From Octopus vulgaris (lineage: Eukaryota), in NCBI GenBank assembly GCA_951406725.2, contig OX597821.1, forward strand, positions 115,196,001-115,260,000: a stretch of DNA of 64,000 nucleotides, read 5' to 3'. Shown here in pieces: positions 27,299-53,102 of the stretch. The position numbers and the translations under genes are program-made. The first letter of the stretch is position 1, and the number at the start of each line of letters is the position of its first letter. The notes beneath the pieces are model-generated. The model was not told the origin of the DNA, searched no databases, and saw only the letters and a program-made list of their open reading frames with translations.

Positions 27299-27616
27299 GC
27301 TTTATTTTTGTTTTTAGTATTTGTAAATTGGAAGTGAAGTCTTAGACCTGATCTACGATGCCATTACAATTTGCCATTTCTACATCAGTTACACAGGCCA
27401 AGTTATTCACAAATGACTACCATCTTATTACCTCAATTGTTTTCTTCTTTTTTTGTAATGCAGCTTCCTCCTCCTCTCTTCCCATTCTCCCTCTCCTCCT
27501 TTCTGGTGTTAAAACTCTACATATGCTTCTGAAAAAAGCGTCAGTTGAGTACAGAGCAGTAATTAAAGAAATTAAATAATGACACAGCAGCATGAAATTA
27601 TGTAATGCATTTCACT

Positions 27617-27697
27617 AGCTTACGGCTGTTTCTGCTATGAGATGCAATGCACTCATAGTTGAGTGCTTGTGTACCATCCTATAGCTTCATCAGAGTT
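27617..27697 (-). ncRNA. Type-I hammerhead ribozyme motif with extended, branched stem II
   Basis: Minus strand: aact CTGATGA a gctat...[gcactca/tgagtgc hairpin]...atagc a GAAAC agcc GTA agct. Confidence 0.65.
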
Positions 27698-28480
27698 TTA
27701 AAAGTGAAGTGCAATTATATTTGGGAAAGCATTTATGCTTATGTACATTCACAAAGATTATTACCATAAAATAAAAAAATAATAATAATGTGTAGGAAAT
27801 GAAGTAATGAGTTTGAGGAGCAGAAGACTTGCCTTTGTTTTGGATTCTGTCACTTTCTATCTACTTCCATTTTCATGCAAATTTTTACTTGTTTATTTCT
27901 TTTTACTTCTTTACATAGTTCTTCATATATCTATTATTAGGCACCTGTGCTGGTGGCACATAAAGAGCACCATTCGAGCATGGCCAACGCCAGTGCTGCC
28001 TTACTGGCACCCATGCCAATGGCACGTGAAGAGCACCATTCGAATGTGGCTGATGCCAGTGCTTCCTGACTGGTACTCGTGCCTGTGGCACATAAAAGGC
28101 ACCATTCAAGCGTAGTCGATCCCACTGCCACTTGACTGGCTCCCCTGCCGATGGCATGTAAAAAGCACCCACTACACTCTCGGAGGGGTTGGCATTAGGA
28201 AAGACATCCAGCTGTAGAAACCTTGCCAGATCAGAATGGTGCCTGGTGCAGCCTCCTGGCTTGCCAGTTCTGATGTCAAACCATCCAACCCATGCCATCA
28301 TAGAAAGCAGACGTTAAACGATGATGATGATATACATACATAAAATTTCATCTAAATGTATGTTTTCTGGGGCTTCTCTTCTTCAAACTCTCTACTTCAT
28401 TTCCTATATATATTTATGCTTTCTGTGTATGTATATAAATATAAATACTTGGCCAAATATCATTGCACTTCATTTTTAAA

Positions 28481-28559
28481 GCTCTGATAAAGCTATGCTG
28501 TGATCCACAAGCACTCAACTATGAGTGCATTGCATCGCATAGCAGAAACAGCTGTAAGC
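28481..28559 (+). ncRNA. Inverted partner hammerhead motif (core G8>A)
   Basis: gct CTGATAA a gctatgc...gcatagc a GAAAC agct GTA agc, with palindromic stem III ACAGCTGT. Confidence 0.6.
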
Positions 28560-48800: not shown

Positions 48801-51800
48801 AGTATGCTAATGCATCCAGAATGTAATAAGATTAATATAAATATATTCACATGCACATGCACACACACCCACGCACACACACACACACACGCACACACAC
48901 ATACGCACACACACACATACACACACACACACACTGTATACATATGTAATGTCCAAACTAGCTATTATTTGGTTTTTAGTATGTGTACATTACGTATGCT
49001 GTAGTAGGTATATCATCATCATCATCATCATCACCATCATCATCATCATCATCATCTATCCATCATCAGTGCTGGCATCGGTTGAATGGTTTGACAGGAA
49101 CTGGCAAACCAAAAGACTGCATTGTACTGCAGCGAGGTCTGCTTTGGCGTGGTTTCCACAGCCGCCTGCCCTTCCTAACATCGGTCACTTCACAGATTGA
49201 TGCTGAAGGGCTTTCTTCATGGCACAGCAGCTGCTAGGTGATTGGGTAATTGGCAGGACAAACACCCACCTCGCCTGAGGGGAGGAAGGGAATTGAGTGT
49301 GGGGAAGGACTTTGTGCCAGGTGAGATGAGAAGAGGGGAATGGGGTCAGAAATAGGGGTCTTGCCATAGAAGAGATCCATGGGTCCCTCAGTAGGAGAAA
49401 GAGAGAGAGCGATGGTGGTGAAGATAATTTGTTGGGACCTACCCTGAAGTTCCAGGGAGGAGGGTATAAATGAAATGGTGAAGAGGAGTGGATGGGATGA
49501 GTGGGAGGAGACTGGGAGATCGGGGGGAGGGGAAGGTAGTGAGTGATGAACACAGGTGGAAGGAGGGAATGTTAGGAAGATGTGTTGTTGGGGTGGGGAG
49601 AGATCTGGCAGGGACAGATTGTGCGCAGGGGTAAAGACATAAATAACAGTTTGTATATTAAATATGCAGTAGAAAGTGTAATTTTTAGGCTTTGTTGTCA
49701 AATGCTGGAGTCATGTGTGAGACTCTGAGTCAAACAGGTTTCCTTTCTCTTCCAGAAAAACCAACATATTTTTCATCTTGTATGCTTTACCTTACTGTGT
49801 CACTGTTGCTCACCTGGACAACACCTTTATCTCCTCTATTTCCAGTGATTATCATCATCATCATCGTTTAACATCCGCTTTCCATGCTAGCATAGATTAG
49901 ACAAATAACTGAGGGATGGCGAACCAGATGGCTGCACCAGGCTCCAATCTTGATTTGGCAGAGTTTCTACAGCTGGATGCCCTTCCTAATGCCAACCACT
50001 CCGAGAGTGTAGTGGATGCTTTTTACGTGCCACCGGCATGGGGGCCAATCAGGCGGTACTGGCAATGACCTCACTTGAATCTTTTTACACATGCCACCAG
50101 CTCAGGTGCCAGTAAGGCGACGTTGGTAACGATCATGCTCGAATGGTGCTCTTGGCACCCTACTAGCACGGGCACAAGTGCCAGTAAGGTGACGCTGGTT
50201 TTCTGAGATTATCAATACAAGATCATACATAATATACTGCATTATATTATATACATGTGCATGTATGGCAACAAGTCTTCTTCCCAACAACATGGTTCTG
50301 GGTTCAGTTCCAATGTGTGGAAGTTTGGGCGAATGTCTTCTACTATAGCCTCAGGCCAATCAAAGCTTTGGCAATGGATTTGGTAGATGGAAATTGAATG
50401 AATCCCACTATATGTGTGTATGTATCTTTGTCTGCCGCCACTGCTTGACAACTGATGTTGGTGTGTTTAAGTCCTCGTAACTTAGTGGTTTGGCAAAAGA
50501 GACTGATAGAATAATTCTCAGGTTTTTAAAAAATTAAGTACTGGGGTCGATTTATTTGACTAAAAATTCTTCGAAGTGATGCCCCAGCATGGCCACAGTC
50601 TAATGACTGAAACAAGCAAATAATAAAAGATTATAGGGTGAAGTGCCTCCCATAACTTCGAATCTCCATTCTTGATAAACATTTTAACAGCAAATGCATG
50701 GTTTGTGCTGGTTTAAAGCCATAATGGTCACTGGAAACGAAAATGGTAAACCTTTAGCAATATGAAGACACCATTCTTATCTGCCTAACTTCTCCAGTGC
50801 CACACCATTGACCATCAGAAATATGGGAGGTTTTTCTGCCTCGCATCCTGTGAGTGTTTGCGTGTGTTTCAAAAGTGCATCTTAGTCATTAGGGTGCTCA
50901 ACTCAATCATAAGGTTGTGAGTTCGATTCCTGGTGACCCACTGTGTCCTTGAGCAAGACACTTTATTTCACATTGCTCCAGTCCACTCAGCTGGCAAAAA
51001 TGAGTTGTACCTGTAATTTCAAAGGGGCCAATCTTGTCACATTCTGTGTCATGCTGAATCTCCCTGAGAACTATGCTAAGGGTATGCGTGTCTGTGGAGC
51101 GCTCAGTCGCTTGCATGTTAATTTCACCAACAGGCTGTTTGGTTGAGCGAATCAACAGGAACCCTTGTTGTCGTAACCAATGGAGCGTGTCGGTTTTCTT
51201 TGTTGTATGTTTAATATTATCTGTTACATAACTCTCTGTCTCTGTAACAGTGCAAGCAAACTAACAAACAAACAAAAAATTGGGTCATCATCACCACCAT
51301 CATCATCACCACCATCATCATCATCATCATCATCTAACATCCGTCTTCCATGTTAGCATGCAGTGATGGCTGTTTCGGCATGATTTCTATGGCCAGACGT
51401 CCTTCCTTCCTAACGCTTGAAATACTTGTGAATTGAAACCTAAAATGGACGATCCTTAACCCACCACCAACACCACCACCATCCCGTGACCACCCCTGTC
51501 CCATGACCACTACAACCCCCGAAAAAATGTAACTATCTGGAAATGAAACTCGTTAATGGTGACTCTTGTATTTTGTAGTTAGGGTCCCCTGAAATGTATA
51601 AAGACTGGTGTTTCTTTTCGAATAATGCCAGAATACGAAGACAAATGAGGAATTTAGGAAATATTTCAACAATTGATCAGCTGAAAGTGAGAAAACAGCA
51701 AAAAATAAATAAATAAATAAATAAAAAATAAAAATAAAACAAAAGAAATCAGAGTCAAAAATGGATTTAAATAAAGTGGTTTGTTGTAAGAAACTGAAAA

Positions 51801-52788
51801 TGGTGTTAGATGTCAATAAAACTACTACTACTACTACTAAATTACTTCTGCTACTGTTACTACTACTACTGCTGCTACTACTACTACTACTACTAAATTC
51901 TGCTACTGTTACTAGTGCTGCTACTACTACTACTACTACTACTACTACTACTACTACTACTACTACTACTACTGCTGCTGCTGCTGCTGCTACTAAATTA
52001 CTTCTGCTACTACTACTACTACTACTACTACTACTACTACTACTACTACTACTAAATTACTTCTGCTGCTGCTACTAGTGCTGCTGCTGCTGCTACAACT
52101 GTATCAGGTGTTTGGGTTTGAATAGTGATGTAAAACTATTACTGCAGACGCTTCTGATACAATCACATAAGTGATTCTATCAGAAGTCATATTATTTTCT
52201 TGTCCTGCAACCAATTTCAATTCACTTCAATTACATCACAAGAAAACCTTAAAAGAAAAAGAAAAACCTAACTTCCTGCTTTCTCGGCTCTTAAATTGCA
52301 TGTTTTTTGGGGGTTTGTTTTTAAGTGTTGGCATGGTTGTGTGATTAAGAAGTTTGCTTCCCAACTATGTGGTTTCAGTTTCAATCCCACTGCACAGCAC
52401 CTTGGGCAAGTGTCCTCTACGGTAACCCTGTGCCTCCCCAATCCTCATCACTGAAACTGGCAAATGAGAACTGAAACAATCCATTAGGTGTGTGTATGTA
52501 TGTGTGTGTCATCATCATCATCATCATCATCGTTTAACATCCACTTTCCATGCTGGCATGGGTTGGACGGTTTGACTGAGGACTGGCAAGACAGGAAGCT
52601 GCACCAGGCTCCAATTTGTTTGTGTATGTGTGAGTGTGCCATCATCATCATCATCATCATCACCATCATTGTTTAACATCCGTTTTCCATGCTAGCATGG
52701 GTTGGAATATATATATATATATATATATATATATATATATATATATATATATATATATATATGGGTGTGTGTGATTGTGAATAGAAGA

Positions 52789-53102
52789 ATATATTAATAA
52801 AAGGAATTCCAACCTTGTCTGATTTTCACGTTTTATTTACAATCTTATAATGATATATTATAAGATAATATATTATAATTGAATAAAAATTGTGAAGCAT
52901 GACTGTCACCACTACTACATGAACCTGAAGATTGCAGAATTTAATGCATGAAAGTACTAGTTCAATCAGAATGAACATTTAACATTCTACTATTTCATTT
53001 TATTTTATTCAATTATAATATATTATCTTATAATATATCATTATAAGATTGTAAATAAAACGTGAAAATCAGACAAGGTTGGAATTCCTTTTATTAATAT
53101 AT
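52789..53102. mobile_element. Palindromic element, ~100-bp apparently perfect arms, near/abutting (TA)n tracts
   Basis: 52789-52888 is the reverse complement of 53003-53102. Confidence 0.92.
52920..52964 (+). ncRNA. Minimal type-I hammerhead ribozyme, intact, in the loop of the palindrome
   Basis: tgaac CTGAAGA t tgca-gaatttaa-tgca t GAAA gtac TA gttca: perfect 5-bp stem I, palindromic stem III AGTACT, predicted cleavage after A52959. Confidence 0.8.

Follow-up and report, generated by a model that had tools for sequence, protein, structure and literature searches.

Hammerhead motifs in octopus dystrobrevin introns as likely pseudo-LTR ends of several Penelope-like element families

A 64,000-nucleotide stretch of the Octopus vulgaris genome (contig OX597821.1, positions 115,196,001 to 115,260,000, forward strand; hereafter the window) carries eight sequences that resemble minimal hammerhead ribozymes within introns of a dystrobrevin gene. 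This raises the question of which elements brought them there and whether any of them can cut the pre-mRNA in which they lie. The original prediction described a dense population of non-autonomous retroelements mobilised by Penelope-like elements (PLEs). Based on the analyses below, we assign a probability of roughly 0.8 to the reading that the motifs are hammerheads in the 3' pseudo-long terminal repeat (pseudo-LTR) ends of several PLE families, and that they persist in the introns as short, mostly decayed pieces that probably derive from RNAs started in the pseudo-LTR and are not likely to cut dystrobrevin pre-mRNA. The PLE origin of the motifs, taken by itself, is very probable.

Hammerhead families and their coding relatives

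Hammerhead-like sequence is present at all eight sites and on the strands originally reported, and the coordinates given then correspond to motif edges. The literal CTGANGA...GAAA core that was ascribed to all of them is found in five of the eight and is missing at 28484, 28795 and 38146. Pairing of the stems was also thought to be preserved; as read from the sequence, only at 52925(+) is the core accompanied by stems I and II and by a palindromic stem III, and the other seven copies break the motif. The long inverted repeats said to hold several motifs are genuine, as a repeat search of the window (its output dominated by microsatellites) recovered a pair of family A copies and a pair of family C copies; because of these two inverted pairs, the eight motifs represent six insertions. 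The elements are as follows, with C3 and H17 giving the positions of these core nucleotides.

4544 to 5048, minus strand: family F PLE remnant; GIY-YIG end with (CA)n expansion, then a decayed hammerhead (C3 4588, H17 4559)
27503 to 27827, minus strand: family C inverted partial copy (C3 27693, H17 27621); core intact, stem I of 2 bp, stem III non-palindromic
27835 to 28710, plus strand: family C direct copy (C3 28484, H17 28556); G8A; interrupted by another short interspersed element (SINE) at about 27940 to 28320
28725 to 28916, plus strand: family B2 short element (C3 28795, H17 28822), between (TA)n and (TG)n
35580 to 35710, plus strand: family D fragment (C3 35599, H17 35629); stem I down to 2 bp
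38059 to 38267, plus strand: family B solo pseudo-LTR (C3 38146, H17 38172), terminating in (TA)n
45441 to 45612, minus strand: family A inverted partial copy (C3 45532, H17 45497); stem III ACAT
45609 to 45690, plus strand: family A tRNA-like head with A-box and B-box; internal deletion in this copy
45691 to 45905, plus strand: family A (AAT)n linker and pseudo-LTR (C3 45781, H17 45816); ATG of the parent open reading frame (ORF) at 45747
52757 to 52888, minus strand: family E inverted 5'-truncated partner, without a hammerhead
52885 to 53102, plus strand: family E solo pseudo-LTR (C3 52925, H17 52959); complete hammerhead, stem III AGTACT

The direct and inverted family C copies are a single insertion. 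Some of the core changes are shared with the families and some are private: at 28795 (A6U and A13G) the loss of A6 is family-wide and A13G is specific to the copy, and at 38146 U4C is a family B trait and G12A is copy-specific. The sense family A copy (45781) has a stem II mismatch and a non-palindromic stem III, ACAT. The family E copy (52925) has a U10.1-U11.1 mismatch and is young, being 99% identical to other E copies.

Each motif was searched in the O. vulgaris genome, with 40 candidates scored and 30 loci kept per family. The motifs fall into six families (A, B, B2, C, D and E) and not the approximately five first proposed; the motif at 28795 belongs to B2, a sister of B, and not to B itself. 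First-look candidates numbered 4387 for A, 2947 for B, 2021 for B2, 1559 for C, 1270 for E and 284 for D. A rough extrapolation puts these families at ∼10^5 copies in the 2.8-Gb genome. The family majorities fold as minimal type-I hammerheads and are better formed than the window copies. The full core (C3 U4 G5 A6 N7 G8 A9...G12 A13 A14 A15.1...U16.1 H17) is present in the majorities of A, C, D, a seventh family described below (F) and part of E, and is lacking in B (U4C) and B2 (A6 lost). A helix I of 4-5 bp, helix II and a palindromic helix III occur together in the family majorities and in one of the eight window copies. A palindromic stem III, reported at first as frequent, is found in every family majority; neither this trait nor the unpaired base after A9 seen in A, B, B2 and F is needed to define a family.

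With U4C scored as core and two duplicate loci removed, copies with the core, and with both core and stems, numbered 25 and 12 for A (of 29), 13 and 13 for B (of 30), 11 and 3 for C (of 29), 20 and 1 for D (of 30) and 28 and 26 for E (of 30). Position 4 is C in family B and in 17 of 28 E copies, and stem II is closed by U-U in E and by A-A in C. In B2, A6 was found in none of the 23 copies that could be parsed among 30 loci; B2 is an abundant family that retains every hammerhead feature save A6. Core conservation was considered as a sign of selection and set aside, since in family C the core (11.1%) and base-matched flanks (12.5%) decay to a similar degree and in family D the query itself contained the core; D loci chosen by upstream sequence have mixed cores.

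The genome holds more families than the window displays, as unselected flanks contained isolated, well-formed minimal hammerheads belonging to at least seven additional sequence types (L033, L113, L130, L157, L160, L169, L200, L201, L239). In a separate observation, related PLE copies (L356, L358, L359, L362, L367, L373) have a hammerhead with a U3-A8 core 440-950 nt past the endonuclease; U3-A8 covariation in hammerhead cores has already been reported (PMC4209133).

Three of the families are joined to coding sequence. In family E, an ORF for reverse transcriptase (RT) and GIY-YIG endonuclease (EN) lies immediately upstream in all three long copies fetched, at 95-97% identity. In three of the four family B copies fetched, RT, a linker zinc finger and GIY-YIG are found ∼1.7 kb upstream. 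In family A, a pseudo-LTR precedes the start of the PLE ORF, and in loci selected by EN the end of that domain is followed after ∼90 nt by a tRNA-like head (23 of 24) and then by (AAT)n and the hammerhead pseudo-LTR (21 of 24). Family A copies with RT and EN exist, and all those scored are broken (longest frame 569 amino acids among 150). A zinc-finger-like linker motif between RT and EN is present in B and E and had no match in A; in an excerpt of PMC8557442 this motif is a feature of Neptune and Nematis, and it suggests that B and E are Neptune-like. The hallmarks of PLEs, namely partial tandems, an inverted 5'-truncated partner and a 30-40-bp tail, are all found, the inverted partner in 20, 13 and 1 of 30 loci for A, E and B, respectively. 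The 3' ends of E fall at two points 32 nt apart, and short copies have an optional 3' tail of ∼30 nt.

A GIY-YIG PLE remnant reported near 4600-5060 was confirmed at about 4560-5048 on the minus strand. It was proposed as the kind of element that drives the ribozyme-bearing copies, and this did not hold: it belongs to a separate, seventh family (F), located through its GIY-YIG end and not through a motif, whose relatives bear their own hammerhead directly downstream of the endonuclease. The remnant itself contains a ninth, decayed hammerhead (4544-4618, minus strand) that had been overlooked, and its (CA)n tract arose from CxxC codons at 4904-4945. A search of the genome for the GIY-YIG family returned mostly PLEs of other families, and B2, C and D were not reached. 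Among other PLEs, a young family (L394-L398, for example G000:C16:20834500-20841500) has many intact ORFs of 781 amino acids; its 3' end contains CCAAT, CRE-like (cAMP response element) and TATA-like words, and our scan detected no canonical hammerhead there.

Copies of B and E also begin at well defined points. Measured against long copies, the 5' ends of E fall within -3 to +10 of an initiator (Inr)-like site in 21 of 30 loci, with a TATA-like box 33 nt upstream of the boundary and several CCAAT repeats, and those of B fall within -5 to +8 of an Inr-like TCATTC in 26 of 30 loci; the consensus words are those we take to be of the Inr, TATA and CCAAT types. This accumulation of 5' ends is not a selection artefact, since longer copies score equally in the searches. 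We infer that the sharp ends are transcription starts, of RNA polymerase II (Pol II) type at a predicted promoter in B and E, and that the solo copies are retrocopies of RNAs begun at the pseudo-LTR promoter. The start site of Penelope sits within its pseudo-LTR in an excerpt of PMC2377424.

In the mechanism that we propose, two pseudo-LTR hammerheads on one tandem parent transcript would pair via their palindromic stem III and excise a unit-length RNA, which may then be circularised and reverse-transcribed. A lone hammerhead would not cut, and this may be why solo copies retain both sides of the cleavage site.

Several points weigh against this overall reading. On upstream walks of one to two 1.5-kb steps, family C homology extends for >500 nt with variable truncation and reached no ORF, and for B2 an ORF was found at none of 30 loci. 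Covariation evidence consists of one pair only: between B and B2 a compensatory stem I change (G-C to C-G) was found, with 97.6% of cells paired compared with 15-49% in slid controls; across families the stems differ entirely, and the families are not alignable in sequence. Natural hammerheads with U10.1-U11.1, with U4C (tolerated) and with a low-activity A6C exist (PMC3088659, excerpt), and on this basis the U4C, A6-loss and 10.1-11.1 mismatch variants should have reduced activity. Finally, the sharp 5' ends could instead be processing sites or RT stops.

The tRNA-like head of family A

A profile built from 30 genome tRNA loci (nhmmer) matches the family A head with E values down to 1.8e-5, and its closest tRNA is a tRNA-Arg-type gene (score 53.5, compared with a shuffled maximum of 45). 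In loci selected by the pseudo-LTR, 22 of 29 head matches begin at -17 to +9 relative to the tRNA-like +1. When loci were selected by the head, 25 of 30 begin at -18 to +1, with modes at -7 and 0, and the other five extend into the endonuclease, giving a ratio of solo to EN-linked heads of 25 to 5. The window copy likewise starts a few bases upstream of +1. Over its whole length a solo element corresponds to the 3' terminal part of the family A PLE, and it shares with tRNA-derived SINEs a tRNA-related 5' head with A and B boxes and a 3' end common with its autonomous partner. Of 83 heads, 79 have a pseudo-LTR behind them: 75 of the 79 that were A-selected and all four that were unselected. These features lead us to regard the head, with some confidence, as a predicted RNA polymerase III (Pol III) promoter and the solo copies as Pol III SINE-like elements driven by the PLE, which would take along their own tRNA-derived internal promoter as they spread.

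If Pol III reads the whole element, TTTT should be missing from it. No TTTT occurs in the family A majority ORF (p = 0.05, 0.16 and 0.19 under three nulls, a weak result) or in the 2.6 kb of two near-complete natural copies, and no TTTT run is common to more than three of ∼27 copies; one A copy has three. PLEs with Pol II-like promoters contain such runs as expected, with six and three in E and eight to nine in another family. The scarcity of TTTT in the A ORF is compatible with transcription by Pol III and does not prove it.

The family A ribozyme also has an unusual position relative to its ORF. Upstream of the conserved N-terminal motif a single ATG is in frame; it is located in the pseudo-LTR, 70 nt ahead of the site of cleavage, and the frame from this ATG into the ORF is unbroken in one natural copy and nearly so in two more. 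The hammerhead would lie in frame, with the ATG on one side and the remainder of the ORF on the other, such that cutting would remove the ATG and circularisation of a unit-length RNA would restore it. This arrangement would make the long-proposed roles of PLE hammerheads in cleavage and circularisation testable through translation. Pol III transcription of the coding parent is nonetheless doubtful, and we consider it rather unlikely that all parts hold jointly, that is, an autonomous, Pol III-read PLE with a TTTT-purged ORF, the ATG-ribozyme order and, in its pseudo-LTR, a captured tRNA-type promoter that also gives rise to a large PLE-driven SINE family.

Other results are unfavourable to a Pol III reading of family A. 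Neither Rfam nor ARAGORN called the head a tRNA, as expected of a degenerate head, and individually just 3 of 24 heads conform to the strict A-box and B-box patterns together. First-look candidates were nearly as numerous for the upstream spacer (1372) as for the head (1447), at odds with solo heads being in large excess; the search skips common words, and the counts are not fully reconciled with the 25:5 ratio. An RTE-like ORF in the window has only two TTTT in 2.3 kb, which weakens the argument from TTTT.

The most serious alternative, which we hold to be somewhat short of even odds, is that the head is a fossil SINE inserted in the 3' untranslated region (UTR) of a Pol II-transcribed parent, with the 5' ends arising from RNase P-like cutting or RT template switching. 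The head with its (AAT)n does resemble a short SINE insertion, the 5' ends have one mode exactly at +1, and the weak p values (0.05-0.19), together with the few TTTT in other A-rich window ORFs, leave room for it. According to an excerpt of PMC10886601, autonomous partners have to use Pol II. Against this alternative, the larger mode of 5' ends lies at -6/-7, as in a pre-tRNA leader. RT, moreover, would be expected to stop 3' of a structure. Pseudo-LTRs before the A ORF pass +1 in none of 18 distinct cases, of which only two approach it (four duplicate rows removed), and with a pseudo-LTR after nearly every head no free SINE form was seen among the 83 cases.

Non-coding families and the host transcript

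We next consider the label of non-autonomous retroelements moved by PLEs. The parts that stand are that these are multi-copy families with PLE-type hammerheads, moved by PLE proteins. In linking families to autonomous PLEs, however, A, B and E proved to be the 3' pseudo-LTRs of elements with RT and GIY-YIG ORFs, and no such ORF was reached for B2, C or D; on present data the label fits only D. Homology among D copies is confined to ∼640 nt that make up 1.5 permuted copies of a ∼400-nt non-coding unit, and walks of the same length as above gave no ORF matches. This is the pattern expected of a retrozyme copied from a circle, and D is likely a non-autonomous retrozyme of this kind.

That all six families are stand-alone retrozymes using PLE proteins, as the original prediction held, is improbable. 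D fits this view, as does B2 with its fixed 215-nt unit, and solo A copies may have spread independently; one family A locus (L006, G000:C30:17291637-17292567) has five pseudo-LTR units of 188-197 nt head-to-tail, a layout that would also permit dimer cleavage. The contiguity of A, B and E with RT-EN ORFs at an equal level of identity refutes it for these families, and the variable 5' truncation of C resembles that of a long 3' UTR.

The placement of the motifs in dystrobrevin introns was confirmed. The gene is on the plus strand, its ZZ exon matches dystrobrevin alpha (E 1.8e-23), and these exons border the introns in question.

40533 to 40641, plus strand: EF-hand exon, the 3' border of intron 10286-40532
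41770 to 41935, plus strand: ZZ exon, bounds approximate
54920 to 55047, plus strand: next dystrobrevin-like exon, with AG/GT bounds, closing the intron with the A pair and E

The 30-kb intron 10286-40532 contains five motifs, and three (the A pair and E) lie between the ZZ exon and exon 54920-55047, which a motif suggests to be part of dystrobrevin. An additional dystrobrevin-like exon lies past the window end at about 67150 (L158), and earlier exons at about -24100 and -21460. The count of six of eight motifs sense to this gene stands and is uninformative, because the two inverted pairs supply one each and the other four of four give a two-sided p of 0.125; among the eight window motifs there is no significant orientation bias. 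The claim of high density holds in part: the window has seven insertion events where unselected loci have 2.1 per 64 kb (Poisson P 0.006), a post hoc excess that is overstated because the families were picked from this window, and the remaining gene region has five copies in 70 kb.

Cleavage of dystrobrevin pre-mRNA by these copies, in practice by 52925, with effects on expression or splicing, is quite improbable. This copy is sense, complete and 99% family-like, and it is predicted to be free in the loop of a 100-bp hairpin (stem II ∼0.85 and stem I ∼0.48 paired). It would need a partner with a matching stem III, though, and no second E hammerhead was found in 134 kb of gene region scanned; minimal monomers were inactive, and dimers of low activity, in PMC4209133. 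As the E insertion is young, a conserved role is unlikely. Contigs from four sequencing runs, aligned to 52770-53780, cover the E element, which is multi-copy, and as contigs they are uninformative on RNA ends, strand or cleavage. Of the other five sense copies, those of B2, B and D are broken, and those of A and C are each predicted to be trapped in a long hairpin with the inverted copy, 49 of 50 bases of the A motif and 44 of 50 of the C motif being paired in the predicted fold. As a separate matter, the inverted partners at 45441-45872, 27503-28710 and 52757-53102 would make long double-stranded stretches of pre-mRNA that are possible substrates of A-to-I editing.

The motifs were also compared with 1-kb-block dinucleotide shuffles, using a descriptor in which either end of stem II may carry one unpaired base. 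The strict core gave two matches (52925 and 45532) compared with a shuffled mean of 0.08 (maximum 1, 60 shuffles), and a core with one mismatch gave eight compared with a mean of 2.3 (maximum 5, 12 shuffles); the strict scan is thus above the shuffles, but only three of the eight relaxed matches are motifs of the original prediction. An Rfam scan of the window at E ≤ 1 returned no hammerheads, and its silence is uninformative since Rfam also missed intact family copies at six loci. That the motifs are chance matches in AT-rich repeat DNA has a negligible likelihood: even with 2.3 relaxed matches per shuffled window and three motifs lacking the literal core, it is refuted by the strict scan, by family majorities that form better hammerheads than do the copies in the window and by the position next to PLE ORFs.

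Other elements surround these copies. A Tc1/mariner-like element at 38364-40002, whose transposase frame is broken and whose 236-nt inverted ends are 97% identical, is inserted directly behind the (TA)n tail of the B copy, and a near-perfect 250-nt palindrome at 58806-59058 (125-nt arms, 90%) resembles a miniature inverted-repeat transposable element. Fragments of RTE-like and CR1/L2-like long interspersed elements (LINEs) occur at 174-2501 (minus strand), 7421-7893, 9494-9793, 14696-15393 and 17691-18034 (minus strand); the LINE fragments of the window include four copies of one LINE 3' end. A tRNA-headed SINE contains a 29-nt tandem expansion at 31029-31347, and several other tRNA-headed SINEs in the window score against the genome tRNA profile.

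Comparison with known systems

The hammerheads of known PLEs have the same architecture and occur as thousands of dispersed single copies per genome, with opposite-strand pairs 100-700 bp apart (PMC4209133; Cervera and de la Pena 2014). The octopus families share with them type I topology, a short helix I, an unpaired base after A9 and a palindromic helix III, as well as the presence of many families per genome, dispersed single copies and opposite-strand pairs. They differ in U4C (B and most E), the loss of A6 (B2), unpaired 10.1-11.1 (C and E) and the sharp, promoter-like 5' ends of solo copies. The motifs as first described are thus a further instance of a known PLE trait, weaker at the level of individual copies than was claimed. 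No cephalopod PLE hammerhead, and no tRNA-headed or Pol III-read coding PLE, was found in searches confined to open-access papers.

Non-LTR retrozymes (PMC7229834 and PMC7761336, excerpts) resemble octopus family D in their 400-nt non-coding unit, single hammerhead and permuted tandems. A tandem non-coding unit of 150-400 nt with one hammerhead is found here only in D and in the one family A array. Excerpts of the retrozyme literature describe these elements as promoterless, whereas each of octopus A, B and E is linked to an ORF of its own. An excerpt of a recent report derives retrozymes from PLE pseudo-LTRs and places >40% of frog copies in introns (bioRxiv 10.64898/2026.07.22.740005).

For family A, the closest counterparts are the Sm-alpha and Sj-alpha SINE-like elements of Schistosoma, which also have a Pol III-type head followed by a hammerhead; as described in an excerpt of PMC6765202, they are non-coding tandems with no named driver, whereas in octopus the two together form the 3' terminus of a coding PLE. 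Family A directly joins a SINE-like element of Pol III type to the PLE that drives it. In the open-access literature, without Repbase and Dfam, these schistosome elements were the only Pol III heads with hammerheads, and non-autonomous LTR elements were the only ones with Pol III promoters in terminal repeats. The latter are Cassandra, Helenus and Ajax (TRIMp3; PMC10886601, excerpt), which have, as is predicted for A, a small-RNA-derived Pol III promoter, perhaps from a SINE insertion, in a terminal repeat, and unlike A, a PLE encoding RT and endonuclease, are non-autonomous. If the Pol III reading of the parent is true, family A would be a coding retroelement that Pol III transcribes; that excerpt considers such a case unlikely, and it would be new.

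Penelope/Poseidon and Neptune PLEs (Craig et al. 2021, PMC8557442, and Schostak et al. 2008, PMC2377424, excerpts) share with the octopus elements an RT followed by GIY-YIG, pseudo-LTRs, an inverted 5'-truncated partner, a 30-40-bp tail at one end, microsatellite targets and a promoter inside the pseudo-LTR, which for the octopus families is a predicted one. As excerpted, Drosophila Penelope has a TATA-less internal Pol II promoter. Octopus family A carries its tRNA-like head at the corresponding position, and in family E TATA and CCAAT boxes lie upstream of the boundary. Solo pseudo-LTR copies with sharp 5' ends could be used to map PLE start sites genome-wide, and such a map would provide a handle on the origin of the pseudo-LTR, which is called unexplained in the PMC2377424 excerpt.

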